A stretch of DNA of 64,000 nt from an uncultured virus (IMG/VR IMGVR_UViG_3300015245_000036) (Duplodnaviria; Heunggongvirae; Uroviricota; Caudoviricetes), in IMG/VR virus record IMGVR_UViG_3300015245_000036; one strand, written 5' to 3'. Below are positions 2,447 through 58,402 of this stretch, in pieces. A program made the translations under genes and the position numbers. How positions within the stretch are numbered: position 1 is the stretch's first letter; each line of letters opens with the position of its first letter. Under the pieces are notes generated by a model. That model had not been told where the DNA came from, did not search any database, and saw only the letters and a program-made list of their open reading frames with translations.

Positions 2447-2835
2447 GCGTCCTCGAGCGCGACGTCGTACTCGTCGTCGTCCCAGTGCGCGGATTCGCCG
2501 CAGCGCGGGCACGTCCAGAACCAGTCCGGACGGTTCAGCTGACGCAAGTACTGCTCCTCGGTGAGGAACTGCTGGCCGTGATCGTCGCAGAGCACCGCGA
2601 ACGGCGTGCGCCGGGCCACCAGGCACGACATGCAATCGACGGGATCGTCGGTGGTCGGTCCGGTTCCGTCGGGGGCGAGTCGCGCGCGGACCACGCGGAA
2701 GCCCATCGCGGCGAGGTTCACGCCCGGCGGCTCGTCGAACACGATGACGCCGCACGCCGTGGTCGCCGTCCGCCAGACGCGGACGTCGTGCACCAGGCCG
2801 TCGACGCAGCGCACGTTCGCCCGGTGCGCCGTCAC
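2443..2835 (-). CDS. HCCC zinc-finger-like protein with a second C-terminal Zn module
   Basis: DGLVH...TACG...VDCMSCLV, then CDDH...CPRC. Confidence 0.7.
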   Translation of the reverse strand: MTAHRANVRCVDGLVHDVRVWRTATTACGVIVFDEPPGVNLAAMGFRVVRARLAPDGTGPTTDDPVDCMSCLVARRTPFAVLCDDHGQQFLTEEQYLRQLNRPDWFWTCPRCGESAHWDDDEYDVALEDA

Positions 2836-3590
2836 TCGGTGATCCCCTTGGCAGCGAGGTAGTCCTTCTGCGGGATGTACGCGCCGGTGGCCTTGTCCCG
2901 GAACCCCCACCCACCGGTCTTGCGTCCCGCCACGAACAGCGACCAGCTGCCCACGGCGGGGTTCAGCAGGTCCACGCGGTGGAAGTCGTCCCCGCGGATG
3001 ACGTTGACGGTTCCGGGCATCACCACCCGCGTCTCCCCGCCCCGCTCCTCGCGATACCCGCCGGCCAGGACGATCGCCACGGCCAGGTCCCATGGGTGGT
3101 TGTGCTGATCGCGATCGGCGTCCCCGCGGTGGAACTTGTGTAGGAACACAGCGAACGGGAGATCGCTGCCCTCGTCGTCGACGTCGCGCGGTCCCTCGGG
3201 CCACAGGTACCATCGCGTGAGGTACGGATCTCCGTTGGTCGAGATCGTCCGGTTGGGTAGCTTCTCGGTGACCGCCTCGAGCTTGCGAACCACGGTGATC
3301 TCGTCGTGCGCGATCAGCCCGAGTAGCCCTGCGACCCGGTTCGAGGCGAGGACCAGAAGCTCGGCGGCCGAGGACGGCATGGCCTCCTCGATGGCCGCGA
3401 GGCGCTGTTGCAGCGCGGGAACGTTGACCACGCCGTCCTCGACCGAGCCGTTGGCGATTATCGTTTCAAGGTTGTCGATTCGGCGCTCGAGGACTCGGAG
3501 GTCTCGTTCGCGGTCGCTCTTGACGAGTTCAAACGCCAATTTCAGGCGCTCGTGGTCCCGTTTCAATGCGTCCATCTCATGCCAGCTCAC
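2832..3590 (-). CDS. Coiled-coil plus cupin-like (HxH) phage protein
   Basis: YLTRWYL...FLHKFHRGDADRDQHNHPW...GGYREE...FHRV, a common phage cupin-fold pattern; start at 3590 or 3575. Confidence 0.65.
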   Translation of the reverse strand: MSWHEMDALKRDHERLKLAFELVKSDRERDLRVLERRIDNLETIIANGSVEDGVVNVPALQQRLAAIEEAMPSSAAELLVLASNRVAGLLGLIAHDEITVVRKLEAVTEKLPNRTISTNGDPYLTRWYLWPEGPRDVDDEGSDLPFAVFLHKFHRGDADRDQHNHPWDLAVAIVLAGGYREERGGETRVVMPGTVNVIRGDDFHRVDLLNPAVGSWSLFVAGRKTGGWGFRDKATGAYIPQKDYLAAKGITE

Positions 3591-3752
3591 GTGTCCTTGC
3601 CTTTCTCGCGCGGTGCCGCGCGTATGAAATTCCTGCGATGACAGGCCAGACGGGCCACGCCGCGCAGCCGAGCGCGACACGCCACCATGGGCCGGTCTTG
3701 CGCATCAGTCCGCCGAGCGCCGCGGTGATGGCCGCCCATACGACCACGATCG

Positions 3753-5032: not shown

Positions 5033-5244
5033 GTGTTGTCGCTTTCTTGCCGTACGAGGCAGGTCATGCAATCGACATCGGCGCTGCGGGGACGGTCCTT
5101 GTCGTCCCAGCAGCTCCGCAACCGACGACTGGCCCCGCAGGGAGCCCGCGCCGTGTACCAGCCGGCGTGGCGGTTGTCGCGACGCTGGTCGGAAAGGGGT
5201 AACCAGGCATGCGTGATGCCCGTCTTGTCGCGCCACGCGCTCAC
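5029..5244 (-). CDS. Small HCCC zinc-finger-like protein
   Basis: DKTGITHAW...APCG...DVDCMTCLV. Confidence 0.7.
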   Translation of the reverse strand: MSAWRDKTGITHAWLPLSDQRRDNRHAGWYTARAPCGASRRLRSCWDDKDRPRSADVDCMTCLVRQESDNT

Positions 5245-5391
5245 GGCGGCCTCCGGCAGCTGACGACCATCGATCCGCCGATCGTGACTGGCCGCATATC
5301 ACCACAAAGCGGGACGGACCTCGGTCTCGAAGGTCGCACGATCGCCGCGCCACCCGCGATCGCAACCAACAGAAGGACTACTAGACCCGCG

Positions 5392-5904
5392 TTAGTCGGC
5401 GGCGGGGGTCTCATTGGGCATGACCTCGACGCCGGCAATGATCTCCGCGATGACGCCCATGATCGCCTCGAAGGCTTCACTGCCGGGCGTCTGCCACTCC
5501 TTGGCGTCCCAGACGGTGACCTCGACCCATGGCAGAGTCAGGTTCTTCCGATGAAGCAGGTTGACCTGCTCCATCAGCGGGCGCTCCTCTGTCGGCATCC
5601 AGTCGACCGACACGCGGTTTGTTTCGGTCTCGATGACAACGAACGCAGTGCCGTCCTTGAAGTTCGCTCTGGTCGGCCCCGGCACCTTGGCGAACTTCGC
5701 TGTGCACTCGGTCACCATCGTGAGCGCCCGGTTGACCGCTTTGAGCACGATCTTCGCCTCGTTCCCTGGGATCTTGGTGAGGTGGTGCTTCGCGGGCACA
5801 AGGATGTTCGGCAGACTGTGGAACATGCCCACCGCGACCTCGTGCGCGGTCTTGGGGATCCACTCCTCGACGGTGCCGTCGGCGGGCTCTTCTTTCTTGC
5901 TCAT
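5392..5904 (-). CDS. Hypothetical protein
   Basis: AGGAG RBS; ATGA-coupled start (MSKKEE). Confidence 0.65.
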   Translation of the reverse strand: MSKKEEPADGTVEEWIPKTAHEVAVGMFHSLPNILVPAKHHLTKIPGNEAKIVLKAVNRALTMVTECTAKFAKVPGPTRANFKDGTAFVVIETETNRVSVDWMPTEERPLMEQVNLLHRKNLTLPWVEVTVWDAKEWQTPGSEAFEAIMGVIAEIIAGVEVMPNETPAAD

Positions 5905-6299
5905 GATTCTCCTTTCAGCGCGGCTATCAGAGCGTCCGCGCGGGCGAGCGCGCCCTCGCGCTGTGTGATGAGATCGTCGATCTGGCTCGCTACGCTGGCG
6001 AGCAGCCGCTCGACGCTCAGCTGCGCGAACACCTCCGTGCGTCGCTCGCGTGAGCACGACGCGAGCACCACTTCGCCCGCGTCGCTCTCGACGATCAGTC
6101 GCCACTGCCCTCCGGTCTTGCCGAACACCAGCTTCTCGTTGTCGGTCAGGCCGACGGAGACGCGCACGCTGATGTGCAGGCGGAGGGCCTCCTCGATCTC
6201 GCCGATCAGCGTCGAGAGCTTCGAGTCCAACTCCTGAATTCTCCTGTTCTTCGATCCGACCGCGGCCAACACGTCGGGAAGTTTGGCGTTATCTGGCAT
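5901..6299 (-). CDS. Hypothetical coiled-coil protein
   Basis: GAAGGA RBS; coupled to the next gene. Confidence 0.65.
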   Translation of the reverse strand: MPDNAKLPDVLAAVGSKNRRIQELDSKLSTLIGEIEEALRLHISVRVSVGLTDNEKLVFGKTGGQWRLIVESDAGEVVLASCSRERRTEVFAQLSVERLLASVASQIDDLITQREGALARADALIAALKGES

Positions 6300-6302
6300 G
6301 CT

Positions 6303-6326
6303 TATCCTTCGAGCGCCTCGCGCTCC
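6303..6326. repeat. Direct repeat copy 1 (23/24 identical to 6567-6590)
   Basis: tatccttcgagcgcctcgcgctcc vs tatccttcgagcgccttgcgctcc. Confidence 0.9.
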
Positions 6327-6331
6327 GCGCC

Positions 6332-6553
6332 TTACGGAGTCTGTCCCGTCGGTGGGACGACGGTCGCGGTGCCGCAGGTGTCCGTGTCATTGCAGGTCGC
6401 GCTGGCGCAGCCGACCGTGCAGTTGCGCCGCGTCACGCAACCGATGCTTGCCGGGCAACCAGCGACGGAACCTCCGCCGACGCGGGCGAGCTGCACGCTC
6501 CCGAGGTGAAGAATCGTCTCACGCGCCAACACCAGACGTTTTGACTTGATCAT
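6332..6553 (-). CDS. Lanthipeptide/RiPP-like precursor peptide (double-Gly leader, Cys/Ser/Thr-rich core)
   Basis: Leader MIKSKRLVLARETILHL...LARVGGG; 45-aa core with 6 Cys and 12 Ser/Thr. Confidence 0.7.
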   Translation of the reverse strand: MIKSKRLVLARETILHLGSVQLARVGGGSVAGCPASIGCVTRRNCTVGCASATCNDTDTCGTATVVPPTGQTP

Positions 6554-6565
6554 GTTGCTTCGTTC

Positions 6566-6952
6566 CTATCCTTCGAGCGCCTTGCGCTCCTCTTCCAGGT
6601 TGCGATTGAGGGCCTTGTGCGAGTCGAACTTGTCGCCGTACCGCACCTTGAGCTTCGCGATGTTCCGCTCGTGCGCCTCGGAGATGGAGCGCTTGATCGC
6701 GTGAAGCATCACGGCCTGGTACCAGGACAGGTCCCCGTTCTCCTCGAGGATGTTGACCTCGTCGAGCGCCTTGCCGTAGATGATGTGCTTCTTCAGCGCG
6801 TCGGCCAGCTCGCCGACCTCGCTCGACATGCCGAGCACGGCGTGGATCAGACGGGCGACGACGACGTCGTGATCATGATCCCCTCCGAGCCTGACGAAGT
6901 CCGGGGTACTTTCGGTGCGCAGGGCGTCCTCTTGGTACTGGTTGTCGTTCAT
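6566..6952 (-). CDS. mazG: MazG-like nucleotide pyrophosphohydrolase
   Basis: LGMSSEVGELADALKKHIIYG...EENGDLSWY...NIAKLKVRY. Confidence 0.88.
   Translation of the reverse strand: MNDNQYQEDALRTESTPDFVRLGGDHDHDVVVARLIHAVLGMSSEVGELADALKKHIIYGKALDEVNILEENGDLSWYQAVMLHAIKRSISEAHERNIAKLKVRYGDKFDSHKALNRNLEEERKALEG
6567..6590. repeat. Direct repeat copy 2 (3' end of the mazG-like gene)
   Basis: Encodes ERKALEG and most of the stop codon of the MazG-like CDS. Confidence 0.9.
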
Positions 6953-7000
6953 GCGATGTTTATCCCATGAGCAAAGCACCCCGTCACATGCTTATGCCAA

Positions 7001-9292: not shown

Positions 9293-9501
9293 GAGGATGC
9301 CTTGTATTCGATCGTATCAGGAGCCACGACCATCGTGTATTCACCCGGACCGAGGCTTGTCGGGCGAACACGAAGGTCGTGACCGACCTGCCCTTCGTCT
9401 TTTCGACGCGTCGGGCCGTAAACCCAGACTTCGACCAAGTCCCTAGTGTTGCCAGGGCCGATGCTACGAATCCAGTTTGCAAGTCTAGGTTTGTTGCTCA
9501 T
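9289..9501 (-). CDS. Hypothetical protein
   Basis: ATGA-coupled start (MSNKPRL). Confidence 0.5.
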   Translation of the reverse strand: MSNKPRLANWIRSIGPGNTRDLVEVWVYGPTRRKDEGQVGHDLRVRPTSLGPGEYTMVVAPDTIEYKASS

Positions 9502-10268
9502 TGTCGCTTTCCTTGCAGCTGAATCAACGGAGGCCCCGCAACTCTCTTCTCTGAAGAGAAGCAGAACCTGCACGCCGCGCACGCGCCTTCGTGCTCGGCG
9601 CCGTCGCGGGCGGTGGCCGGGCAGGCGCGCGGCTCAGGATCCCACTGCGCCCGCCTGGACATCTTGTGCTCCTCGAACACGACGGACACCCAGCGCGGGA
9701 CCTTGTCCTCCGGGCTCCTGCGCGCCCACGCCGCATAGAACTGCGGCCTGTTCTTCAGGACGAGCAGCCGTGTGGCCTCGGTGTTCGTCCGTGTCGTCGT
9801 GGAGTCCAAGCTGAGCATGACGTGCAGGTTCGGTAGGTTTGGTAACAAACCTGCCAGCTCGAGCTTCCGGGTCGCCACCCACACGGCCAACTCCGGGAAC
9901 TCGACGGCGATGCACGTCGTGAAGAACACCGATCCCGGTTGGAGGTCGCCGACGCCGAACATCCGTACGAAGTTCTGTTTTTTCAAAACAGCTCTGGCGA
10001 TGCGCCGGGCCTCGTGCCGGAGTACGGCCTTGTCGGCGGACGCGAAGAACGCCGCGTTGCGCGCCTGCGACGCGAGGGCCGCGTCGTACGTCAGGCGACC
10101 GAGGAGGCCGTAGCAGTACTCGGCGCAACCCTTGGTCGGCCTGCACGTCCGCGCGATGGCGACGTTGATCGAGCAGCCGGTCTTGGAGTTGGTGGAGAGG
10201 GACACCTCGAACGCGTCGGCGAGACCGAGCCGCGGCGTTCGACCGCGGATGACGGACAGACGGCTCAT
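9498..10268 (-). CDS. GP88-like (radical-SAM-related) phage protein
   Basis: NSKTG...TCRPTKGCAEYCYG...VRMFGVGD...TRK...LSLD...C...CAACRFC. Confidence 0.7.
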   Translation of the reverse strand: MSRLSVIRGRTPRLGLADAFEVSLSTNSKTGCSINVAIARTCRPTKGCAEYCYGLLGRLTYDAALASQARNAAFFASADKAVLRHEARRIARAVLKKQNFVRMFGVGDLQPGSVFFTTCIAVEFPELAVWVATRKLELAGLLPNLPNLHVMLSLDSTTTRTNTEATRLLVLKNRPQFYAAWARRSPEDKVPRWVSVVFEEHKMSRRAQWDPEPRACPATARDGAEHEGACAACRFCFSSEKRVAGPPLIQLQGKRQ

Positions 10269-12824: not shown

Positions 12825-13373
12825 TCAGTACTCCACGATGTCCGCGGGCACGTCGTGGTCCCCGAGGGGCTGCTGCGCCCGGACGGTCACGCGACCCGAC
12901 GGCGTCACGCGGATCAGCGTGACCGTCTGCCTCTTGTCGACCCAGCCCTTGACGGGACCCGACAGGATGTCGACGCACTGCTCCGGGCTGCTCAGGCTCT
13001 CCGCGATGCAAGACATGCTGCGCGGGCACCCCTCGCAGATTCGACCGGGCTCGTCGACGGGGACCAGCGCCCGCGTCGGAACGAGCACCTGCTTGCCCTC
13101 GAGCTGGAGTTTGCGCAGGTAGACCCTCAGGGCCCCGGCGTTGACCTCCGTGCGGATGGCATCCCGGAGTTCCGGGTCCGGGATCAGCGCGTTCTGTTGG
13201 GCGGCCCCGAGACGCCACATCACGGGGTGCTTGATGGCGTCGATCGCGTAGATGAGGCGGGCGACCGCCTGAATGGGCAGGTCGAACATGCGCGCCAGAA
13301 CCTCGGCGAGGTCCTTCTCCACCCCCGCGACGTTGGTCTCGCGGAGGGCTTGCTTGAGTCTCTCGGTGGGCAT
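12825..13373 (-). CDS. Hypothetical protein
   Basis: AGGAG RBS, MPTERL start; CEGCPRSMSC resembles the motif in the adjacent gene. Confidence 0.65.
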   Translation of the reverse strand: MPTERLKQALRETNVAGVEKDLAEVLARMFDLPIQAVARLIYAIDAIKHPVMWRLGAAQQNALIPDPELRDAIRTEVNAGALRVYLRKLQLEGKQVLVPTRALVPVDEPGRICEGCPRSMSCIAESLSSPEQCVDILSGPVKGWVDKRQTVTLIRVTPSGRVTVRAQQPLGDHDVPADIVEY

Positions 13374-28361: not shown

Positions 28362-31300
28362 GCGAGTTCTCGTCCAGCCTCCCGCACGGCGCCGCCGCGC
28401 TCGTATATATCAACGGGATCGAAGTGCCCGTGGTCCGCGTCTCGCGGAGGTACGGTGTCTGGCAGGTGCCCGAGGTCCAGGTCTCGATGGTGCCCGACCC
28501 CGTGCTCACGCGACTCGGCGCCGAAGACCGCGTGCAGCTCGAAGTGTTCTACCTCGACGACACCGCCGTCGACCCGAGCGTCGTCCCCCAGTTCCGCCTG
28601 TGGTTCGACGGTGAGATCACCGGATGGGGATATCAGAGCCTGTCCTCCGGTCGCGTCATCACCCTGACCGCGGTCGCTCAGATCGCGATCTTCACGCAGC
28701 TGTTCGTCCAGTTCCTGACGACGTTCGACGATCTGCTCGGACACAGCACGCTGCCCGGCGCGGACGCGACCGGCATCGGCGTCCCAACCAGCCAAATCGT
28801 GTTTCCGTTCTCGCTGTTCAAGCAGGGCTTGATCTCGGGAGGCGGGCTCGCGCAGGACGCCTCGTCCATCGTCCGCCCGTTCGACTTCCTGTACAACGTG
28901 ATCCGCAACATGATCGGGGCTCAGGTCCCGCACGAGCAGCAGACGATCCCGGCGGCGAACTTCTTCTCCCGGTGGTCGCGTCTCACCAACTTCCACAACC
29001 GATTTGTTGCTTCGCCGTTCTTCGATGAGATAGTCGACAACCCCAACATCTTCCCGGTCCTTCGCGCCCTACAAAACGTCTCGGCCGTCGACACCATCGC
29101 CAGGAACCTCATTCCTAACGTGCAGAACTCCGGGTCCATATGGGACATGCTCCAGCTGGTCTTTCAGACCATGCTGTTCGAGATCGCGATGGTCCCGTCG
29201 ATGCCGCTGGTCGCGACGTCTCTTGCGAGCGGCCTGGTGCAGCAGACCAACTTCTCCGATCACGTCCTCGCGTTCGACCCCGCGCGGATCCCGAACGGCG
29301 CGTTCGTCGCGGCCCTGGCCGGCGAGAGCCGGAAGGCCACGCCGCGCAGGATACCGAGTTACTTCCCCAAGCCGCAGACCCTGTTCGGCATCGCACCGAG
29401 CTGCAACGTGATCTTCCCGTCGCAGCTGGTCGCGCTCGCGTACGACGAGAACTACGCGACCCAACCGACAAGGCTCTACTTCAACGACGAGACGCTGCTC
29501 AACCTGCTCCGCATCCCGCGTGGCGGGTACAGGGAGACCGTGCACAACGCGCTGACGATCGCCTACCCGCCGGAGGCCGATGCGGCAATGCACGCGCGAG
29601 CGCGCGGGGGCGGCAAGCTCAACGGAAAGAACCTGCTGCTGTGGCCCGAGGAATTCTTCAAGGGCCCCGTGCTCGACCGCAGGGACGTCCCACCGTGGCT
29701 GTTCTTTCTCAAGCAGAGCGAGCTGATGAGCACGCCGCCCACGGGTCGAACGGCGGACGGCGCGGTGGAGACGCCGCCGGCGCCCGCGCGCACGCCGCAG
29801 GTTCCAGCGCCGGCCGCGGTCTCCGTTCCCGCGGGCACGATGGTCACCGCGGGTCGCGTCGGCACGCAGGCACCCGACGGCACCCGCGTGTTCGGTCGCG
29901 CGGTCGAGAATCTTCGTCCCAAGGTCGCGCGGCTGAGCGTCGTGACCGGGATCCCCACCGACTTCCTGCTCGCCTGGATATCCCAGGAATCCGACGGGAG
30001 CATCCGCACCGTGACCCGCCTCAACGAGCGCGGCTTCTTCCAGATCATGGGTCCGCACGTCTCGGGCGGCACGGCGACGACGCTCAGGGAGTCCGAGGCG
30101 GGGATGATTGGGCTGGGGCTCGACGCGACGGGCACGGGCCCCGACGACACAAACGCGCGCCTGTCGACAGATGAGGACTTCTCGCTGCAGTCCGGTGTTA
30201 AGCTCGTGCAGTTCTACCGTCGGTTCGCGAACCGGATAGCGATCGAGCAAGGCCTGTCCTGGACCGAGGCAGACATGTGGCGACTCACCAAGCTCGGCCA
30301 CAACGGCGTCGGGTTCGCGAAGCAGACGGTTCAGGCCGCGAAGGCCGTGCTTGGCCGGGCCCCGATCTCGTGGGAGGAGATGTACAAAGCCGCGGTGCCG
30401 ACCCTGTCGGCCGGCGTGGCCAACGTCGTGAACGGGGCCACGGCTGTGGGCGGCGTGGTCGCGGGCGCCTCCGGAGCGATGATCACCAAGAGCGATCCCC
30501 GCCCGACGAGGGCTCCCGTCGCGACGACGGCGCCGAGAACATCGACGGACGTTGTGTCCACGCTCGTGGCGCCTCAGGTTCCCGCTGCGGCGCCGCAGGT
30601 CAGCGAATCCGTAACCGCGTCGCTCGAGAGCGCGGAGACGGTTTATCAGCTCTACGCCAAATACGAATTCTTTCGCGAGCGGTACGCCAAGCGGTCGGGC
30701 TCAGCGCAGATCGCGTGGAACCCGTACGTCGTCGCCGGCTTCCCCGCTGTTATCTTCGACCACCGATCGTCCCGCGTCGACATCGCGTGCTACGTGACGA
30801 CCGTGCAGGACGTCATCGACCTCAGCGCGACCTCAGCGCGAAAGTCGACGACGATATCGTTCCTATACGGGCGCCAGCTGCAGGAGATGTTCGACCTCAT
30901 GGCCCGGCAGTTCGCCGACGGCGAGGCGTCGGCGGGCTCGGCGCCGGCCGAGCCCATCCGGGACGTGCGCAAGGTCATCCAGTCATTCTCCCAGGCGGAG
31001 ACCTACTACCAGCGGCTGTTCTACGGCGGGCAGCCCTTGTTCAATAAGGACGCGGCATTCGACTTCCGCAAGATCATCGGATACGCGCCCGACGTCGCCG
31101 GCGGCTCTCCGGTCACAATATTCGTGGATGGTCCCGAAGAGGCTGATCAGGACGACCTCGCGACGGCGCAGGTCCAGCTTGCGCAGCTGACCAGCGATCG
31201 AGCGGACAAGACCGCGCAGCTGGCGAGCGTCAGCGCCGGGCTCTCCACGGCGTCCGCGCAGGCCGCCGCCCTGAACGCGACCGCGTCCAACACCGCAGCG

Positions 31301-31936
31301 ACGCAGCTGGCCGCGCTGGGCAGGCTGGTGTCCGACGGCGCGACCATGGTCTCGCAGCTGCGCGCCGACCTGGTAGCCATCGACGCCAGGATCCAGAAGG
31401 CGCTCTCCGTGATTCAGTCCACCCAGGACGTCACGCGCACCGCGCAGGTCACGCACAACCTGGTCGGCAATCGCGAGCTGGTCCCGCTGGCCTCCGCAGC
31501 GCCCCTGTTCAGCGGATACGACGACGCGATGCGGTACGCGTGGCGACCGATATGCACACTCGACGAGTACGTCGTGTTCCACGACGCCGCGGGTGAGGGC
31601 TTGGTTTCCGCGGCCGGCGCCGCGGGTAGTCTCGGCGCGACCTACTACTCGAGGATTCGTCGGACGACCGCGCCGACGAGCGAGGAGCAAGCCTCGCTTC
31701 GCGCGCCCGGCGGCGCCGACGGCCTGACGCCGGCGCAGGCAGCGACGGATCCGCAGGTCGCGGCGCGGCTCGGAGCAACGGACGCGGTCACCGGCCAGTC
31801 AGCGCAGGTCCCGTCGATAGCGGCCACCGTTCCCGGCCTGACCAACGCGAGCTTCCCACAGGTCCGCGCGGACTGGGATCAGGCCCTCCTGGCCTACCGC
31901 GCCAACGTTCGCTCGGTAAAGGCGCCTCGCACATGA
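28358..31936 (+). CDS. Baseplate hub-like protein with an internal lytic transglycosylase (SLT) domain
   Basis: GIPTDFLLAWISQESDG...RGFFQIM...HNG SLT motifs between Pro/Ala/Thr linkers; hub-like beta-rich ends. Confidence 0.65.
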   Translation: MSEFSSSLPHGAAALVYINGIEVPVVRVSRRYGVWQVPEVQVSMVPDPVLTRLGAEDRVQLEVFYLDDTAVDPSVVPQFRLWFDGEITGWGYQSLSSGRVITLTAVAQIAIFTQLFVQFLTTFDDLLGHSTLPGADATGIGVPTSQIVFPFSLFKQGLISGGGLAQDASSIVRPFDFLYNVIRNMIGAQVPHEQQTIPAANFFSRWSRLTNFHNRFVASPFFDEIVDNPNIFPVLRALQNVSAVDTIARNLIPNVQNSGSIWDMLQLVFQTMLFEIAMVPSMPLVATSLASGLVQQTNFSDHVLAFDPARIPNGAFVAALAGESRKATPRRIPSYFPKPQTLFGIAPSCNVIFPSQLVALAYDENYATQPTRLYFNDETLLNLLRIPRGGYRETVHNALTIAYPPEADAAMHARARGGGKLNGKNLLLWPEEFFKGPVLDRRDVPPWLFFLKQSELMSTPPTGRTADGAVETPPAPARTPQVPAPAAVSVPAGTMVTAGRVGTQAPDGTRVFGRAVENLRPKVARLSVVTGIPTDFLLAWISQESDGSIRTVTRLNERGFFQIMGPHVSGGTATTLRESEAGMIGLGLDATGTGPDDTNARLSTDEDFSLQSGVKLVQFYRRFANRIAIEQGLSWTEADMWRLTKLGHNGVGFAKQTVQAAKAVLGRAPISWEEMYKAAVPTLSAGVANVVNGATAVGGVVAGASGAMITKSDPRPTRAPVATTAPRTSTDVVSTLVAPQVPAAAPQVSESVTASLESAETVYQLYAKYEFFRERYAKRSGSAQIAWNPYVVAGFPAVIFDHRSSRVDIACYVTTVQDVIDLSATSARKSTTISFLYGRQLQEMFDLMARQFADGEASAGSAPAEPIRDVRKVIQSFSQAETYYQRLFYGGQPLFNKDAAFDFRKIIGYAPDVAGGSPVTIFVDGPEEADQDDLATAQVQLAQLTSDRADKTAQLASVSAGLSTASAQAAALNATASNTAATQLAALGRLVSDGATMVSQLRADLVAIDARIQKALSVIQSTQDVTRTAQVTHNLVGNRELVPLASAAPLFSGYDDAMRYAWRPICTLDEYVVFHDAAGEGLVSAAGAAGSLGATYYSRIRRTTAPTSEEQASLRAPGGADGLTPAQAATDPQVAARLGATDAVTGQSAQVPSIAATVPGLTNASFPQVRADWDQALLAYRANVRSVKAPRT

Positions 31937-32688
31937 CGCTCGACAGGATCGCTAGGCTGGCCAAAGCCGCCAACGAGACGAAGGCCGAGCGCGACATCGT
32001 GCTGTGGCGCGCGTGGAAGAAGAATCCCTCGGACGCCGCGGCCTCGGCGCTGCTTGCCCAAGTCTCGCCCCTGATCGCGCGCGAGGCGTCAAAGTGGGAC
32101 CAGACGATGGCTCGCCCGCTGCTCGAGACCGAAGGCAAGCGCCTGGCGATGCAGGCGTTCCACGGCTACGACCCCGGAAAGGGCGCGGCCCTCGGCACCC
32201 ATCTCGTTAACCAGCTTCAGCGGATGAGCCGGCTCGTGTACGCGAATCAGAACGTCGCCCGGCTGCCCGAAAACAAGATGCTGTGGTTCCACGCCTACCA
32301 CAAGGCAAGCGCGCGCCTGGGGGACGAGCTTGGTCGCTCGCCGACCACCGACGAGATGGCGGACGAGCTGGGATGGTCGATCCCCCGCGTCGAGGAGTTC
32401 CGGCGATCGATCAGCCGGCGCGAGCTGCTCGAGTCCGGCGGTCACGACGACTCCGGCGCCTCCGGGCTGCACGAGGACGAGCGACAGGACCACACGTTGG
32501 ACTTCGTGCACCACGGCCTGCCGCCGGTCCAGAAGGCAATCTTCGAGCATCTGACGGGGTACGCAGGATCGGAAATACTATCCAATCAAGGGATTCAAAA
32601 AAAGCTCGGCTTGACTCAAGGGATTTACTCGTACCAGAAGGCGAAGTTGATCGAGCACGTCTCGAACGTGCAGAAGGGAAAGCGATGA
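31933..32688 (+). CDS. Sigma70-family (FliA/SigF-like) sigma factor
   Basis: AFHGYDPGKGAALGTH (region 2), RLPE, ELGRSPTTDEMADELGWS (region 3), C-terminal HTH. Confidence 0.8.
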   Translation: MTLDRIARLAKAANETKAERDIVLWRAWKKNPSDAAASALLAQVSPLIAREASKWDQTMARPLLETEGKRLAMQAFHGYDPGKGAALGTHLVNQLQRMSRLVYANQNVARLPENKMLWFHAYHKASARLGDELGRSPTTDEMADELGWSIPRVEEFRRSISRRELLESGGHDDSGASGLHEDERQDHTLDFVHHGLPPVQKAIFEHLTGYAGSEILSNQGIQKKLGLTQGIYSYQKAKLIEHVSNVQKGKR

Positions 32689-39676: not shown

Positions 39677-41353
39677 ATGTCAGGAAGCGTGAAGCAGTTC
39701 GTCGATTTTACGGGCAACACCAACAACGACACGGGCGCGAATACCGTGGCCTCCATCCAGCCGATCGCCAACGGGGAGGCCGTCGACGGGACCGTGTCCG
39801 GTCGACCGGGCGAGAGTCTGCGCCAGCGTACCGAGGCCATCCGCGACGTCATGGCGGATTCGCTGTACCTTCGCGATTCTGACCGCAACTTCATCGCGTT
39901 TTGTCTCGGCGGAATTACATGGCCGGGCAGCACAACGGTCTCTGCCAGTGGCATACCTGTACTTACCAACACACTCTATCTGGTGCCGATGCTCACGCCC
40001 GGAGCAATCCAATTCGGAGCCCCGCCCATCGCATCTGCATTCGGTGTCTTGCACCTCAAACGGTCAAGCGACAGCGCGAACGCGGTCTCAGTGACGAGCC
40101 GGCGCCGGAGTTACGCTGCGGGAGATCAGATCAACGTGACCGTCACGTCTGGCGGCTCGTTTTCATGCTCGCTCGACGTTGAAATTGGTTATCGCAGGAC
40201 GATCAAGATCGTAGCCACCGGGTCCACTACACTGGGCGCTGTGATCACCGCGCTCAACGGGCTGATCCCTCCCGCGCCTGACAACACGCAACTTGTGACC
40301 GCAGCGCTTGAAGGCGGAGCGTCGTCAGGCGATCTTTTCCTTGCACCACAAGCCCGGCAGGTTGCCGTGGGAAATTACGACGCCGAGGGTCATCAGATCG
40401 CCGTTAGCACTCTGTCGAGCTTCTTTTCTAGTAACCCCACGCAGGCTCTCGCGGAAGGCGATTCGTTGTGTGTTCGTTACGATACGGTGACCGACCCCGC
40501 CTCTACAGGAGGACGCCGACAGTCGCTTGTCGAGAACAGCAATACCTCCGTGCCTGCGGGTTCATTGTTCAACAGCCGAGTGCACCCCGAATTCTTGGTT
40601 AACGCTCTACCCATCTGTAAGGTGTTCAACAACAGCCTAGTGTTCGGAACGGGTTGTGAAATCAGGCCAGGCTCTGTTGCCGGACGATTAGACGGGGGAG
40701 ACGGGACAAATATTTCGTATGGCGGTGGCGCTGCATGGGCTGATGGGACCGCGAATCCGGCGACGACAGTTGAAGGTCAATTCGATAAAATCATCAATGA
40801 CCTGGTGGGTGCAACTGGGTCTGCAAAAATTCAAGGTGTTGCCAATGCTGATTTGGCGGCAGGCACCGTTAAACAACAAATCGATCTTTTGTCGAGCGGT
40901 TGGCTTAAGGTAGGAAAGTTTGTCAATGCTACATGGCCCCTGGCCGGTTCAGCTTTCCTTTTAATATCGGGTGGCGCTGTTCCTGACGGCTCCAGCGGGT
41001 GGAATTTCCCTACCACGGGCGTCATTCAGGCGAATTTAGGTCTGCCCGCGAGCGCAGTACTTACTAAGTTGCGTGTCCGATACAATCGGAACGGCGCCAA
41101 TGCTTTTCAAGTGCAAATGGGTTCGATAGATTTAACTACGGGCAGCGGCGGCTCTAGCTCCGTCTTCGACGATTTGATTAGCGTAGGAGACTCAGTGATT
41201 GACATCATTAATTTTGGAGTTAACGGGTCAGGTGAGTTTAACGGGACGTCAGGGCCGTATACATTGTTGAGCAGTAGAATTTACTATATACAAGTATCAT
41301 TCAACAGAGCTATTGGGACACCCCAATTCATTGGCGCGATAATCAACCCCTAG
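39677..41353 (+). CDS. Tail fibre/receptor-binding protein
   Basis: Last gene of the tail operon; Gly/Ser/Thr-rich; GC falls visibly toward the C-terminus. Confidence 0.6.
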   Translation: MSGSVKQFVDFTGNTNNDTGANTVASIQPIANGEAVDGTVSGRPGESLRQRTEAIRDVMADSLYLRDSDRNFIAFCLGGITWPGSTTVSASGIPVLTNTLYLVPMLTPGAIQFGAPPIASAFGVLHLKRSSDSANAVSVTSRRRSYAAGDQINVTVTSGGSFSCSLDVEIGYRRTIKIVATGSTTLGAVITALNGLIPPAPDNTQLVTAALEGGASSGDLFLAPQARQVAVGNYDAEGHQIAVSTLSSFFSSNPTQALAEGDSLCVRYDTVTDPASTGGRRQSLVENSNTSVPAGSLFNSRVHPEFLVNALPICKVFNNSLVFGTGCEIRPGSVAGRLDGGDGTNISYGGGAAWADGTANPATTVEGQFDKIINDLVGATGSAKIQGVANADLAAGTVKQQIDLLSSGWLKVGKFVNATWPLAGSAFLLISGGAVPDGSSGWNFPTTGVIQANLGLPASAVLTKLRVRYNRNGANAFQVQMGSIDLTTGSGGSSSVFDDLISVGDSVIDIINFGVNGSGEFNGTSGPYTLLSSRIYYIQVSFNRAIGTPQFIGAIINP

Positions 41354-41787
41354 AGGCCACAAGTAGTACGAGGCGCCATATGGTTGTCGTTGTATGCAAA
41401 CCCGAGGGTGGCCACAGCTGTTAACGTGAGCAGCCCATCAACCACAAAGGGAGGAAGAGTATTAAGATACCCTTCACTAATCGGGTTGGGTATACGGTCC
41501 TCCCCCTGAGGAAGCACCATGAGTGCCGTAATCACACCCAAGTTGACGCCCAGGCCTCCGTACAACGCCAAGGCACTGGGCTGTTTCCCAAGCGCGGCGT
41601 TGGTTTCCACCTGGGGTCCGCCCGAATGAATCGCGGCGTTGGTCTGCATGGTGGAACATGCAGCCCCAACAGTTGCCAGGCCTGCCATGGTGTATTGGTA
41701 GGCCCTATGCTGTCCAGGAGAACAACTGACCAATATCAGGGTTGAAATCATGATAACGATGACTATCAACGTACGTACCTTATCCAT
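41350..41787 (-). CDS. Putative membrane lipoprotein
   Basis: Basic N-terminus, hydrophobic stretch, lipobox-like LVSC; further hydrophobic segments. Confidence 0.55.
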   Translation of the reverse strand: MDKVRTLIVIVIMISTLILVSCSPGQHRAYQYTMAGLATVGAACSTMQTNAAIHSGGPQVETNAALGKQPSALALYGGLGVNLGVITALMVLPQGEDRIPNPISEGYLNTLPPFVVDGLLTLTAVATLGFAYNDNHMAPRTTCGL

Positions 41788-41816
41788 ACAGTCTTATACC
41801 TTACGAGGTTACTCAT

Positions 41817-42026
41817 TTAAGTGATCTCCATGCTCATTGCCTCCGTAGGCAACCATTGCTCGTAGGTATAGTCGCCGCCGGCGAGCCGGCGAACCACGAT
41901 TTTTCCCACGCGAACATCCACAAGGCAAGCGCCGCACACCGTTGCGACTGTTCGGGCCTTATTGGTTACAACCAACCCCTGATTGGCTTCATTGAACGAC
42001 TCACTGCAATTGCTGCATGTCTGCAT
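41817..42026 (-). CDS. Small zinc-ribbon protein
   Basis: CSNC...CGAC. Confidence 0.55.
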   Translation of the reverse strand: MQTCSNCSESFNEANQGLVVTNKARTVATVCGACLVDVRVGKIVVRRLAGGDYTYEQWLPTEAMSMEIT

Positions 42027-50753: not shown

Positions 50754-52014
50754 CGCCCGCCTCCTTGGCCTCCTTCTCTGCCTTGGCGCTCGCCTGCGTG
50801 TACGCCCGGATCATCTTGGCGAAGTTCGGGTTCCCGACCAGGGCCCCGTTGATACCCTGGCGCCACCAGGTCTCCGCAGCACCGCCACTGCGCTCAGCGT
50901 TGTCGACGCCGGCGTTCATGAACGACATCACGATGTCTGCCGGGATATCACCGAGGAACAGCGCGAGGCTATCGACGAACTCGCCGGGCACCCGACGCTC
51001 CTCGGGCAGGTTCACCACGCGAACCGCCAGGCCTGCGACGAGGTCCGTGATCCGGTCCAGCCGCTCGTCCTTGATGAGCTTCTGCACGCGCGACCGCACC
51101 TGGCTGTAACGGTACAGGACGTCGTCCGGCGCCACCGTGGTCGTCCGGTCCTTGACGTACTCCAGGAACGTCTGCGTTGTCGCGGTGCCGATGATCCCCG
51201 CGTACGCCGCGCGTGCCACGGCTCCCGTGAGCGACTCATTGGCCGCCGCCAACGCGAAGCACACGCGGGACACCGCTTCCCACGTGGCAGGACACGCGAA
51301 GACCTTGCCAGCCTTGGCAGCGGTCTCATCGTAGAAGTGGCTGACGTGGGCCCGCAGATACCCGAGAACCTCGTCGTGAAACTCGCTGCGCTCGGCGTAC
51401 GCCATGAAGTCCGCGTAGTCCGCCGCGAGGTACACCATCATGGTGCGCCGGCGCATCGCGGGGTCCTTCTCGTACTCGTTGACCGAGAAACCCTGCCCAG
51501 AGGGGTTCATCGTCGCAATGATCTGGATACCGTCCGGGATCTTCGTGTCGCCGATCATCCGGTCCCCGATGAGCACGAAGGCGGAGCGCGTGGTGCTCTT
51601 GTCCGGCGCGCGGTTCAGCTCCTCGATCACCAGCACAGCCTTGCGGTGCGCGGGGATTCTGCGATTGGGGTGGTTGGGCGCCTCATCCTCCACGTAACGA
51701 AGAAGGTCCTCGAACGTTCGCGGGATCTTTTGGTCGAAGAACGGCGAGCCGTCCTTGGGCAGGGTGGGCAACTGGAAGCTCTCGGGCGCCGCCGTCGGCA
51801 TGTGGATCTGCGCGTACGGGACGAGACGGCGCTCGGCGATCTGCTTCGGGATGGCGGTCTTGCCGATCCCCGACTGACCCATCACGGTCAGGACCAGGTT
51901 CTGGTCGGCGATCACACCGATCATGCGCTCCAGCACGCGCGGCGTGACGGTGTCGATTCCGAGCTGCGTGGCCGCGGTTTCTTCGACGTGGTAGCTTGCT
52001 TGAGGCTTGGACAT
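50746..52014 (-). CDS. MoxR-like AAA+ ATPase
   Basis: GQSGIGKT, IEELNRA, ATMNP, DPAMRRR. Confidence 0.85.
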   Translation of the reverse strand: MSKPQASYHVEETAATQLGIDTVTPRVLERMIGVIADQNLVLTVMGQSGIGKTAIPKQIAERRLVPYAQIHMPTAAPESFQLPTLPKDGSPFFDQKIPRTFEDLLRYVEDEAPNHPNRRIPAHRKAVLVIEELNRAPDKSTTRSAFVLIGDRMIGDTKIPDGIQIIATMNPSGQGFSVNEYEKDPAMRRRTMMVYLAADYADFMAYAERSEFHDEVLGYLRAHVSHFYDETAAKAGKVFACPATWEAVSRVCFALAAANESLTGAVARAAYAGIIGTATTQTFLEYVKDRTTTVAPDDVLYRYSQVRSRVQKLIKDERLDRITDLVAGLAVRVVNLPEERRVPGEFVDSLALFLGDIPADIVMSFMNAGVDNAERSGGAAETWWRQGINGALVGNPNFAKMIRAYTQASAKAEKEAKEAGVR

Positions 52015-52064
52015 GTAGACTCTCCTGTTGTGTGTTGTTTCGGTTCGACGGTCGGCGGTGCCGC

Positions 52065-53687
52065 GTGACTGCGGTCGCCGGGGAAGTGATCAGCGGATAC
52101 AGGTCGGACATCGCGCAGGCGCTGTTCCATGTCGAGGGCAGTCCGTTCAGCCTCGAGGACTACCCGACGCACCTGGCGATATACGACGGCGACTACGCGA
52201 AGCTCCTGCTCAAGATGGCGAGGCAGACCGCCAAGAGCACGGCCATCGCGTGCTTCATGATCGCGGAGTGCGTCGGCACTCCGCACTTCAAGTGCTACTA
52301 CATCAGCCCGAGCAAGGAGCAGACCTGCAAATTCTCGAACTCGAGAATCGGGAAGATCCTGTCCTACAGCCCGGACCTGAAGCGCACGTTCGTGGGCCCG
52401 GAGTCCGTTGACAACGTCCTTCATCGGATGCTGCGCAACGGCTCGGAGATGGCATTCAGCTACGCCTGGGACGACCCGGATCGGACGCGCGGAATCTCGG
52501 CCGATCGCACCGCGTTCGACGAGGTCCAAGACATCCTCTACGACGAGGTCATCCCCGTTATCGAAGAGTCGATGGGCAACTCGAAGTTCGGCCCGTTCTC
52601 GATATACGCGGGCACGCCCAAGACGAGCGAGAACACCATCGAGCTGCTGTGGCAGTGGTCGTCGCAGACCGAGTGGTGCATGCGGTGCACGGGCTGCGCG
52701 AAGTTCACGTACATCGATAGTACCAAGGCGCTCGGCAAGCACGGCCCAATCTGTCTCTCGTGCGGCAAGAATCTCAACCCGAGGGATGGGCGCTGGGTAG
52801 ATCTCTGCTCGGGGAAGACGATCAAGGGCTTCCACGTCAGCCAGCCGATGATGCCGCGGAACGTGCCAGCGGCCTGGCCGACGTCGAGCCCGATGCACGC
52901 CAAGGCGGTCAAGCACTGGGACGAGATGCTCGGGAAGATGGAGCCGTACGGCGAGACCAAGTTCCTCAACGAGTGCATCGCCGTCAGCACCTCAACGGGC
53001 GTGAAGCTCCTGACCAAGGAGATCCTCGAGGGCCTGTGCGACGAGCGGCGCACCATGACGCGCCTTCCGATGCCGCGGGCCAAGGACGGGATCGTCAGGG
53101 TCGCCGCCGGCGTGGACTGGTCGGGCGGCGGTGGCGAGGTGAAGGGCAGCGAAGGCTTGTTCAAGTCGCGAACCGTGTTTCACATCTGGGGTCAGACCGA
53201 GGACGGCCGGCTCAGGACGTTGTTTTACAAGATATTCCCCAACGCCCACGCGACGGGCTGGGTCGACGAGATCGTCGAGCTGTGCAATGCGTGGGGCGTC
53301 CAGATGATCGTCGGCGACGAGGGCGAGGGCGCTCTCGCGAACTCGATCCTGCGGCAGAAGCTCGGCGAACATCGAGTCATACAGATTCGATACATGCACC
53401 TCAGCAAGCCCGTCGACTGGCGTCCCGACAAGCAGACCTACCACGTTGACCGCACGACCATGATCGACAACTTCGCCCGCTTCCTGATGCTGAAGCAGGC
53501 GATCTACGTCTCGAAGACCCAGATGAAGCCGGCGATCGACGACATCCTGAGTGTGTACGAGAACGTCACACGCACGGGTCACAAGGTCTGGCAGCACCCG
53601 CCCAACGTGCCCGACGACTCGCTGCACGCTCAGCTGTTCGGCTGGTTCGGGTGGCGCCTGCTGTGCAAGGACCTGACGTTCTACTGA
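52065..53687 (+). CDS. terL: Terminase large subunit (GpA-like)
   Basis: ARQTAKST, RGISAD, DEVQD, GTPKT, CTGC/CLSC Zn ribbon, GVDWSGGG, DDSLHA; start uncertain. Confidence 0.85.
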   Translation: MTAVAGEVISGYRSDIAQALFHVEGSPFSLEDYPTHLAIYDGDYAKLLLKMARQTAKSTAIACFMIAECVGTPHFKCYYISPSKEQTCKFSNSRIGKILSYSPDLKRTFVGPESVDNVLHRMLRNGSEMAFSYAWDDPDRTRGISADRTAFDEVQDILYDEVIPVIEESMGNSKFGPFSIYAGTPKTSENTIELLWQWSSQTEWCMRCTGCAKFTYIDSTKALGKHGPICLSCGKNLNPRDGRWVDLCSGKTIKGFHVSQPMMPRNVPAAWPTSSPMHAKAVKHWDEMLGKMEPYGETKFLNECIAVSTSTGVKLLTKEILEGLCDERRTMTRLPMPRAKDGIVRVAAGVDWSGGGGEVKGSEGLFKSRTVFHIWGQTEDGRLRTLFYKIFPNAHATGWVDEIVELCNAWGVQMIVGDEGEGALANSILRQKLGEHRVIQIRYMHLSKPVDWRPDKQTYHVDRTTMIDNFARFLMLKQAIYVSKTQMKPAIDDILSVYENVTRTGHKVWQHPPNVPDDSLHAQLFGWFGWRLLCKDLTFY

Positions 53688-54519: not shown

Positions 54520-55176
54520 CTACGACGACGGGCTTTCGTCGTCGGTCGACTTCCCGGCGTAGATGTCTACCGCGTCGGGCTCCACCGCGGGCTCGGCGAC
54601 GGGTTCGACACTGGGTGGCGCATCCACGATCGGCGCCTCGTGCGGCATAGCCTGCTCGACGTGAGCCGTCGACCGAGCGAACGAGTAGTCACCGGCCGCG
54701 ATCTTCGCGAAGTAGTCCTCGTACGCCGGGATGAGGGCCTGCGGCACGGGGGACCGGCCGAACGGCGTCTCCGTGGAGAGGTCCAGGTACGTCTCGATCA
54801 GCGCGATCGGCTGGAACGTCACCGAGTACTGGGCGACGAACGCGCCCGGCTGCCCGGGCTGGAATCCCATGCGAATAGCCGCGGGCGCCCACATCCGAAT
54901 GTCGAACGAGCCGACGCCCGACCCCTTGGTCTTCTCCACGCGCCCGATGATCGGGCCTATCGTGGTGTGGAACAGCATGATCGGGAGGGCCTGCGCCCGC
55001 ACGTGCCACGCAGCCTCCACGGGCTTGGTCTTCGCGGTCTTCGACGCCTTCTGTGTTTGCTTCTTCATTGCGGTCCTCTTGACTCGTTGCTTGCGTGACG
55101 CCTTTTGCGCGTCGGGGTTGTAGTCGGGATCGTGTTGATCCCCTCCGAAGTTATTCGGCATGCTGGCCTCTTTCAT
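54520..55176 (-). CDS. Hypothetical protein
   Basis: ATGA-coupled to the polymerase gene. Confidence 0.6.
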   Translation of the reverse strand: MKEASMPNNFGGDQHDPDYNPDAQKASRKQRVKRTAMKKQTQKASKTAKTKPVEAAWHVRAQALPIMLFHTTIGPIIGRVEKTKGSGVGSFDIRMWAPAAIRMGFQPGQPGAFVAQYSVTFQPIALIETYLDLSTETPFGRSPVPQALIPAYEDYFAKIAAGDYSFARSTAHVEQAMPHEAPIVDAPPSVEPVAEPAVEPDAVDIYAGKSTDDESPSS

Positions 55177-58100: not shown

Positions 58101-58178
58101 CGACTGGTTTTCGGGATCTACATCCTCGGGACCGTGGTCCGCGACCACGGGAAGCTTGACCTTTTTGGAGACGGCCAC
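55173..58178 (-). CDS. polA: Family A DNA polymerase with N-terminal UDG-like domain and 3'-5' exonuclease
   Basis: IDVET, HNGGFD, YAAVD; TGRLAS..NMQN, DWKGAEIR, KRVVFGILYG, TVHDS; N-terminal CQGC...PKIIVPLGATA. Confidence 0.92.
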   Translation of the reverse strand: MAVSKKVKLPVVADHGPEDVDPENQSPRKGIVCQGCDLENKSRVPGAGAHGEVDIMFVSESPSSWSTNNHQVFYGRGGRIIRQAWKELTELDNRTGGSLGMRRLRKWDTYAVQCQVEEGRDQTAKIHKTTLDRCSHYLRAAIAHKRPKIIVPLGATAMKALGYKTEKFGEARGRVLRHEIEGQEILILPTFGSKQLLVKTGLYPLFYNDLIKAVKIASGVEEAAAQVTLEELSRDYVMPKTVAEVKDLCDHIIEYVIPGAPSASRCALAIDVETNTLNPHRADAKVLCVSFAWDNGRATAIPLWHPLAPWTPEELEAVVGHVRRVLECPKPKVFHNGGFDLRMLELRHGLRVANVAWDTLLGEHLLREDMSGAYSLKILGRSYFPQFANYADKVGELAAKLTVEEEGVSKLLKDIRKRKIKSPGFDEGMSIEMSKSQLEAYLYGDKKHRKKQANDNGYSRVPLDILLPYAAVDTDLTRRLLRNQTARVNEEGCKGALSLMRTHCIPGSRALGKMEFDGFPVDRNYLDHLEVQLGRIVDEKMSALRSLWASTARFYPDKKNEEFNPNSTQQVAWLLFTAGVMDPENPVPDVNGAPRPATRQGPWCEINKKSQQFKVDKKTLKAIAEKTKCPFAKTLLEYRAAHKALTGFIVEIRVLSDYDGRVHTSFLQHGTSTGRLASRNINMQNLPIKSIAGLNIKKLFIPDDPEEEVIFNVDWKGAEIRVFTAYARDEQLEKAINDGLDVHSWFTQEIFGIPYDEVERGKEDVHKEVRTTVKRVVFGILYGAMAKKIAETAGISEERAQEVIDKLFARFPSLKGYMDEVVASIHKHGFVETFFGRRRRFPLVRVNRFFAGQAERRGKNMKIQSTSSDIVIGQLIEIAEHIHELGGRLCITVHDSIVGTIKKKYLHLAEAFFQKYCVDRVSEKYPWLPVAFACDLTVGSSYGEAKSTIQEYIAKNAPTPATPEQEFFAEIDEEALIELREDEDEAREREQIEEALGAKAS

Positions 58179-58402
58179 TACGGCTCGTTCCTTGCGCGTC
58201 TTGCGTAGTAATGCCGAGCATTTTTCCAATTCACACGCATTACGTACTCAAGCGGGCGACATTTCATCGCCTCGCGTTGACCTCCGCACGCGGTGAGAAA
58301 AAAGCGAATTCCATCAACGTCGACAGCCTCCATGAAATATTCAACTTCACCGGCCTCGTCATACACGAGCGCGCGCCCAGGAACCCATATCGGCTCATCC
58401 AT
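58178..58402 (-). CDS. Hypothetical protein
   Basis: GGAGG RBS; fills the gap between primase and polymerase. Confidence 0.55.
   Translation of the reverse strand: MDEPIWVPGRALVYDEAGEVEYFMEAVDVDGIRFFLTACGGQREAMKCRPLEYVMRVNWKNARHYYARRARNEP

Follow-up and report, generated by a model that had tools for sequence, protein, structure and literature searches.

A putative stand-alone lanthipeptide precursor gene in an uncultured phage

Why would a large soil phage carry the substrate of a biosynthetic pathway and none of the enzymes that act on it? The question is raised by a small open reading frame (ORF) on the minus strand of a 64,000-nucleotide (nt) stretch of DNA (the window) from an uncultured virus of the Caudoviricetes (IMG/VR record IMGVR_UViG_3300015245_000036), whose predicted product resembles the precursor of a lanthipeptide, that is, of a peptide made on ribosomes and then modified after translation (RiPP). 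The answer that we favour, with a probability of roughly 0.55, is that the ORF encodes a stand-alone class I LanA-type precursor, which LanB, LanC and a C39 exporter of the host would mature and export.

A cysteine-rich peptide with a lanthipeptide-type leader

The gene occupies positions 6332..6553 of the minus strand (222 bp), opens with ATG and closes with TAA, and its translation reproduces the reading given in a preliminary description of the window, namely a product of 73 residues made of a 28-residue leader and a core of 45 residues, among them 6 Cys and 12 Ser/Thr. The leader (codons 1-28, minus strand 6470..6553; MIKSKRLVLARETILHLGSVQLARVGGG) carries a K-x-L-x-L-x-R-E-T-I-x-x-L motif followed by Gly-Gly and ends in VGGG; cleavage after G28 would place G27 and G28 at −2 and −1, and V25, L22, L17 and I14 at −4, −7, −12 and −15, in agreement with double-glycine (C39/PCAT) leaders and with the consensus of the family described below, which is spaced identically. 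The −4 and −7 leader residues are important in C39 substrates, and it is the C39 domain LahT150 that cuts the leader off the PedA peptides of Pedobacter lusitanus (both according to the available part of PMC12328550). The core (codons 29-73, minus strand 6335..6469), delimited from the translation and from the pairwise alignment with the homologue P0003, contains 3 Ser and 9 Thr placed near the Cys residues, with S-x3-C and S-x2-C at its start, and thereby combines Cys and Ser/Thr capable of forming thioether rings as expected of a LanA core. The i+4 and then i+3 spacing of these first Ser/Cys pairs recalls the first two rings of nisin-type peptides, a resemblance that we treat as a lead only. 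Reading the V-A-G-C formed by the leader end and the first core Cys as a lipoprotein box was considered and rejected, as charged residues in the supposed signal speak against it. The GC content of the ORF at the three codon positions (0.58/0.62/0.77) fits the coding pattern of the phage, which is rich in GC at third positions.

Among 1.84 billion representative proteins searched with phmmer, six reach E ≤ 0.001: the query itself, P0003, and four long proteins (839-2,409 residues, with 7-16 matched stretches each) that were discounted as tandem-repeat or low-complexity matches. P0003, an 85-residue protein from a 1,298-bp metagenome contig, is 62% identical over residues 3-54 (E 2.9e-9), a span that covers the leader and the first 10 residues of the core (SVAGCPASIG), the latter being the same in both peptides. 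It scores 29.8 bits (E 4.8e-7) with NF038153 (lant_leader_L1a, class I lanthipeptide), over the curated threshold of 22 bits, carries a precomputed match to Pfam PF28317 (Lant_leader_dom) and scores non-significantly (9.1 bits, E 1.2, cut-off 25) with TIGR04149 (GG_sam_targ_CFB, radical-SAM-modified Gly-Gly peptides), to which the phage peptide has no match. Residues 4-28 of the phage peptide align to positions 8-32 of the 32 in the NF038153 profile (13.7 bits, E 0.053); the leader formula of class I precursors of the NF038153/PF28317 kind is, we presume, L-x-L-x-K-x5-L ... Gly-Gly.

An independent profile was built from 23 leaders of a Thermoanaerobaculia metagenome-assembled genome (G002), found via NF038153 and without use of the phage peptide. 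This profile scores the phage ORF at 27.0 bits (E 2.7e-7) and aligns residues 3-28 (26.5-bit domain), the ORF being the sole significant match among the 1,714 six-frame segments of the 96,258 bp available for this phage (next best E 4.8); 1,000 shuffled versions of the peptide reach at most 3.0 bits. By the leader profile, no second precursor is present in these 96 kb. A profile of 33 leaders, part of which had been found using the query, gives 30.8 bits (E 1.9e-8), and the phage peptide aligns without strain with 30 other members of the family (31-row alignment A2).

The genome G002 was reached through a scan of one genome per species with two short peptide patterns, in which 2 of 149 matches were confirmed: a 50-residue peptide of G002 that has KRLVLARETI in common with the phage leader, and a Burkholderiales locus (L010) that was dropped because it lies inside larger ORFs. 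Other searches returned little. A word-based protein search yielded the query alone (1 of 1 candidates), and a two-row profile of the phage peptide and P0003 (A1) recovered only these two (2 of 208 candidates). The single match confirmed in a metagenome scan (1 of 296) is the phage's own contig, and the one retained from a viral scan with A1 (L013, 1 of 80) was discarded, there being no peptide ORF at that locus. Three GenBank phage records, all at E ≥ 4 and under dUTPase genes, are chance matches, and querying with another member of the family gave no match there; look-alikes of the peptide in an atlas (scores of 0.83-0.86, under the 0.9 bar) are leads only.

Because of the homology with P0003 and the match to the independent profile, the N-terminal 28 residues can be assigned to the class I lanthipeptide leader family K-L-x-L-x-[RK]-E-T-L ... 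Gly-Gly, despite the failure of the phage peptide to reach the curated cut-off. The lanthipeptide-type leader of the preliminary description, when checked with leader hidden Markov models, thus stands by way of P0003 and the independent profile and falls short where the peptide's own NF038153 score is concerned. The same two lines of evidence, together with the conservation of the frame and of every Cys in strain variants (see below), indicate that the ORF is a real gene.

Partner enzymes in bacterial and phage genomes

In genomes of Acidobacteriota, the same leader is found beside full-length lanthipeptide enzymes. Contig C13 of genome G178 holds in a row a 1,159-residue LanB (Lant_dehydr_N plus Lant_dehydr_C), two precursors and two LanC genes; contig C2 of G117 encodes within 12 kb a 1,088-residue LanB, a 713-residue ORF with a C39 peptidase domain, a precursor and LanC; LanC directly follows the precursor on contig C55 of G234; and G002 has a precursor flanked by LanC and a protein kinase gene, as well as a C39 domain about 1.1 kb from two precursors. 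ORFs of 713-815 residues with a C39 domain occur in 5 of 5 genomes examined that hold the leader family. This adjacency to LanB, LanC and C39 exporters bears out the earlier claim that leaders of this type are of the lanthipeptide kind.

Most family members are found at a distance from the enzymes. G002 has 34 NF038153 matches (17 at or over the cut-off) and 7 LanC-like genes; about two dozen of the matches are small ORFs of 46-75 residues with the same leader and unrelated Cys-rich cores, a set that looks like a prochlorosin-like expansion in Acidobacteriota, where the leader of the family members precedes hypervariable Cys/Ser/Thr cores. In G178, a single leader match out of 21 lies within 1 kb of LanC, the rest being at least 17 kb off or on other contigs. 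The family can be described as a class I lanthipeptide family with a Gly-Gly leader, whose normal state would be service in trans, because most precursors lie far from the enzymes. G002 also holds an 820-residue kinase-LanC fusion and, about 7 kb from one precursor, a TfuA-YcaO pair.

With the A1 profile, 24 of 401 Acidobacteriota genomes match at E ≤ 0.01, and 21 matches in 9 genomes remain at E ≤ 0.001 (with the seed genome G002 left out, 15 in 8 of 400). The corresponding figure for Pseudomonadota is 16 of 401 genomes at E ≤ 0.01, where only 2 matches reach E 0.001 and most cover the low-complexity core, not the leader. The distribution of the leader may be taken as a mild pointer to Acidobacteriota, short of a host assignment.

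The phage presents a different picture. Positions 1-57,322 of the window correspond to positions 32,259-89,580 of an IMG/VR record of 89,580 bp (G001; 99.997% identity), and the two together make up the 96,258 bp of phage sequence mentioned above. G001 contains no C39 and, in a six-frame search, no LanC or LanB N-domain; Pfam scans reveal no LanB/C/M/KC, radical SAM, YcaO, C39 or ABC domain in 60 ORFs of the window (scanned as 8 and 52) or in the 56 ORFs of the other 32 kb of G001. A complete relative, G405 (184,915 bp, direct terminal repeats), matches 32 of 51 window proteins collinearly, with core genes mostly 44-67% identical, and covers the part of the genome unseen in this phage; it has no LanB, C39, LanC or leader, and the five related phage records that include it yield no leader match (0/5) and no LanC (0/5). 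Hence LanB and LanC are encoded with the precursor in bacterial members of the family and are not found with it in the 96 kb of the phage, in the seen part of which the gene would be an orphan. The preliminary description, which had recognised no maturase or exporter in the 64 kb, agrees with the empty Pfam scans of the window, and extending the check for Lan enzymes to the rest of the 96 kb and to G405 leaves it unchanged. Two genes of the window were considered as maturase candidates and rejected, both being conserved in G405 (55-56% identity), which has no such peptide: a GP88-family gene (9498-10268, minus strand; Pfam PF17338, E 4.3e-15; 55% identity) with clustered Cys near both ends, and a gene at 2832-3680 to which PHROGs gives the label 'cysteine dioxygenase'.

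A scan of viral sequences with DNA patterns for K-L-x-L-x-R-E-T-x-x-x-L in high-GC codons picks out eight loci. Five of these are small ORFs whose N-terminus bears the motif and whose tails are rich in Cys; the other three (L103, L106 and L108) fall by chance within long ORFs, as does one further match from a sister pattern, and an earlier pattern gave none. As a chance match picked by the pattern also scored 17.8 bits, pattern-chosen loci under about 18 bits prove little by themselves. On the independent profile, G812 (95,652 bp, 100% complete by CheckV) encodes one leader-type peptide at 27.7 bits, with a Gly-Gly end and 8 Cys, and G811 (58,397 bp, terminal repeats) encodes two, at 27.2 and 18.2 bits, of which the latter escaped the pattern and was picked up by NF038153. 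G409 (38,515 bp, 62% complete) also has two, at 14.2 bits and, by profile alone, 20.9 bits; G408 (96,680 bp, 73% complete) and G813 (59,951 bp, terminal repeats) have one each, lacking a Gly-Gly end, and are weaker cases. LanC and the LanB N-domain are found in none of these five records, three of which are rated 100% complete. G408 and G409 carry terminase, portal, protease, major head and other phage genes and are unrelated to the window phage in the stretches compared; G811-G813 are taken as viral from their IMG/VR class, terminal repeats and CheckV. Similar genes without LanB or LanC thus appear to be present in three further phage records at the least, and perhaps in five, so that the gene described here is probably not unique and would represent a known kind of lanthipeptide precursor in an enzyme-less form carried alone by phages. 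The paired genes of G409 (L078 2396-2536; L084 about 12866-13009) and of the unrelated G811 (L104, L109) lie far apart in each genome, and one of those in G409 is found just behind the large terminase gene.

Local history and possible roles

Within a long block of minus-strand genes, the peptide ORF fills the gap between two genes of the same strand. Directly upstream and in the same frame is a MazG-like pyrophosphatase gene (6566..6979, minus strand; phrog_229, E 2.1e-37), which scores 19.8 bits with Pfam MazG, under the 22-bit cut-off, and has relatives of 43-63% identity in 7 IMG/VR loci, none of which shows a leader-type peptide ORF downstream of MazG. Its TAG stop is separated from the peptide ATG by a 12-nt spacer (6554..6565, minus strand), and the purine-rich GGA..GGAA just upstream is a likely ribosome-binding site. 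On the other side, the ATG of a 132-residue ORF without assigned function (5901..6299, minus strand) lies 32 nt past the peptide ORF; this ORF has no significant Pfam, NCBIfam or PHROG family and no match in G405, and is missing from the variant contigs described below. Its stop is overlapped by the likely ATG (5902-5904) of the next gene (5392..5904, minus strand), for which no family was found. As neither a sigma-70-like promoter nor a minus-strand terminator-like site flanks the peptide gene, it is most simply read as co-transcribed with its neighbours. A small membrane-type protein that ends in ..PVTIGGSMV.xCR (5241-5480, minus strand), encoded downstream of the variable stretch, is conserved in two relatives (L002 3989-4165; L004 3601-3780).

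The peptide gene is bracketed by the copies of a 24-nt direct repeat (23/24 identical, 264 nt from start to start). Copy 1 (6567..6590) forms the 3' end of MazG (..RKALEG-stop), and copy 2 (6303..6326) follows the peptide stop in frame as ..AEREALEG-stop, finishing immediately ahead of the 132-residue ORF's ATG; because MazG relatives end in ..AER..LE., copy 2 resembles a remnant of the 3' end of another MazG that a mosaic joint left behind. Strain variants are available as contigs from 4 sequencing runs in 2 studies, which show presence only. In those of three runs from one soil study, the 427-nt segment 5906..6332, which contains copy 2 and the 132-residue ORF, is replaced by six other letters, while the peptide ORF is whole and ends in TAG (longest contig 111,323 nt); a 325-nt contig from the second study (freshwater) covers 6301-6625 unbroken. 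The cut of this indel falls at gene borders, as in phage mosaic joints.

Eight substitutions distinguish the peptide ORF in the variant contigs, without indel or stop and with all Cys, Ser and Thr kept. The leader has four synonymous changes (R11, E12, H16 and G28) and one replacement (V20A), and the core has no synonymous change and three replacements (G48A, N55D and V65I). RiPP precursors show a conserved leader with a changing core, and the distribution seen here would be precursor-like in this respect, eight substitutions being too few for a test. The gene lies in a recombination-prone stretch, yet is kept in both strain forms.

Under the reading favoured here, the peptide would be expressed from the long minus-strand block, which also contains nucleotide-metabolism genes, in a host that owns lanthipeptide machinery. 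Its leader would dock on the host LanB and LanC, which would remove water from Ser/Thr and form thioether rings with the six Cys, and a host C39 exporter would cut after Gly28 and secrete the product. That the phage borrows host enzymes in this way is what we infer from the sequences compared. Among the conceivable pay-offs, a secreted ring peptide specified by the phage, either bioactive or a signal, ranks first, a competitor that ties up host lanthipeptide enzymes second, and no benefit third; the well-kept Cys-rich cores favour a matured product.

Several observations weigh against this reading. The phage peptide stays under the curated NF038153 cut-off (13.7 vs 22 bits, and 14.7 bits in a six-frame search of G001) and has no Pfam match in the local Pfam copy, which is without the PF28317 model; the leader matches in the other phage records score 12.5-14.4 bits, with 0 of 5 records over that cut-off. 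Similar leaders also serve radical-SAM-modified peptides, and no ortholog of the core occurs in the 401 Acidobacteriota genomes (best 32 bits). About half of the phage genome is unseen, the 89.6-kb G001 being 48% complete by CheckV. The phage has no close cultured relative (best identity of 28.5% for the large terminase subunit, TerL, and of 26.4% for the DNA polymerase), and TerL finds only distant matches (≤28%) in 4 of the 401 Acidobacteriota genomes. Finally, the gain from a secreted peptide is hard to see for an apparently lytic phage.

Of the rival explanations, the one that deserves most weight, although we consider it unlikely, sees the gene as a passenger, a host precursor gene picked up in a recombination-prone stretch, useless to the phage and processed incidentally or not at all. 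The absence from the collinear G405 of matches for the peptide, the 132-residue ORF and the next gene fits such an origin, as do the seven MazG-relative loci without a leader-type ORF, the MazG relic and strain indel right beside the gene, and the single close homologue in very large databases; yet both strain forms, and contigs of both studies, have the ORF intact, most of the leader changes are synonymous and every Cys, Ser and Thr is kept (within the small sample of eight substitutions), and the presence of comparable genes in unrelated phages, some with two per genome, is hard to square with pure accident. Rather improbable is a decoy or competitor, whose leader would engage the host LanB/LanC or C39 exporter and so block the maturation of host precursors, some of them possibly anti-phage. 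It is worth testing because class I lanthipeptide clusters with anti-phage function have been reported in Actinobacteria ('lanthiphage'; available parts of bioRxiv 10.1101/2024.06.26.600839 and of PMC12360287), and it would agree with the leader being the conserved part in the strain variants and with genomes in which many precursors of this leader compete for few enzymes. A pure decoy, however, needs no Cys/Ser/Thr-rich core, whereas 6 Cys and 12 Ser/Thr are kept here and the copies in other phages are Cys-rich too, and lanthipeptides of this leader family are not known to act against phage.

A shade less probable again is an unmodified double-glycine peptide, in which the leader would serve only for export and cleavage by a host C39 protein, and the core would be held by disulfides, like that of a class II bacteriocin or signal, and bear no lanthionine rings. 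The Gly-Gly end with hydrophobic residues at −4, −7, −12 and −15 suits C39 substrates, six Cys, being an even number, could give three disulfides, and C39 ORFs accompany the leader family in 5/5 genomes; but this is the very leader family that stands beside LanB and LanC, P0003 passes the lanthipeptide leader models, and the 12 Ser/Thr lie near Cys as in lanthipeptide cores. We regard it as very improbable, lastly, that the precursor is no orphan and that its maturases are encoded in the unseen half of the genome. The 96,258 bp seen and the CheckV estimate leave room for them, but the unseen part corresponds to G405 below about 84 kb, and G405 is without LanC, LanB N-domain or C39 anywhere; four other relatives are likewise without LanC, and three records that are rated complete and encode similar peptides lack LanB and LanC.

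Comparison with known systems helps to place the host-matured precursor favoured here. It has the leader motif, Gly-Gly end and Cys/Ser/Thr-rich core of class I Gly-Gly-leader precursors such as PedA; unlike them, it is known from the gene alone, comes without enzyme or exporter, and has its own score under the cut-off. Prochlorosins (ProcA/ProcM of marine cyanobacteria) offer scattered precursors with one leader, hypervariable cores and service in trans, the same pattern as in G002 and G178, but they are class II, depend on one LanM enzyme, have a Nif11-type leader and are chromosomal; a literature search on prochlorosin and cyanophage found no paper on phage-borne precursors. A ribosomal peptide precursor gene likewise lies on a phage genome in the case of sublancin, encoded by a cluster in the Bacillus subtilis prophage SPbeta, and of other prophage bacteriocin clusters. 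SPbeta, however, carries the whole set of precursor, modifying enzymes, immunity and transporter, and in a survey the phage-borne clusters, two of them lanthipeptide clusters, were nearly all in temperate phages and mostly complete bacteriocin sets (available part of bioRxiv 10.1101/2020.10.01.322628). Here, in contrast, the substrate is found alone, in a phage whose 96 kb of available sequence show no integrase. The arbitrium peptide AimP differs in its leader, lacks post-translational rings and has a phage receptor that is known, whereas none is evident for the present peptide. The likeness is one of concept, AimP being also a phage-encoded small peptide that relies on host export and processing (as presented in the accessible portion of PMC12360287).

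A broader proposal, which we put forward tentatively and consider possible rather than probable, is that bare lanthipeptide precursors recur in the phages of soil bacteria as auxiliary genes of a new type, with products matured by LanB/LanC of the host and exported by its C39 pump, either to give the phage a ring peptide of its own (a weapon, signal or exclusion factor) or to jam an anti-phage pathway of the host. The present gene and those of the five further phage records would then be among the first members of this class. No report of orphan RiPP precursors on phage genomes was found in the literature searched, which mostly leaves out subscription journals. RiPP mining starts from enzymes or whole clusters, so that a precursor alone on a virus is invisible to it, and one large RiPP survey removed viral contigs before analysis (according to the part of PMC11118758 available). 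If true, the proposal would extend the known forms of host take-over to the borrowing of a biosynthetic pathway in place of a metabolic enzyme; it would connect phages with the highly diversified and so far unexplained families of precursors in soil Acidobacteriota and offer a direct test of whether such peptides matter in phage-host conflict.

Further features of the phage

No tRNA gene and no Rfam match is present in the window, and no RNA dataset is listed among the 14 sequencing runs with matching sequence. PHROGs and Pfam identify a large terminase subunit at 51996-53687, as well as a primase, a helicase, a ribonucleotide reductase, a RuvC-like resolvase, a baseplate protein, an M23 peptidase and a sigma-70-like protein. 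The DNA polymerase, of family A (55173-58229, minus strand), has an N-terminal domain of the uracil-DNA-glycosylase superfamily (Pfam UDG, residues 63-215) before its 3'-5' exonuclease and polymerase domains.

The sigma-70-like protein (31933-32688, plus strand) matches region 3. Outside the window, G001 encodes a stand-alone response-regulator receiver domain (29662-30054, equivalent to L015:9662-10054), a NUDIX hydrolase and a protein with a PEP-utilising-enzyme domain. A 558-residue protein at 39677-41353 (plus strand) matches G405 only over residues 26-414, and its unmatched C-terminal part lies in a dip of GC content at 40001-42000 (0.54 vs about 0.65), as expected for the swapped receptor-binding end of a tail fibre.

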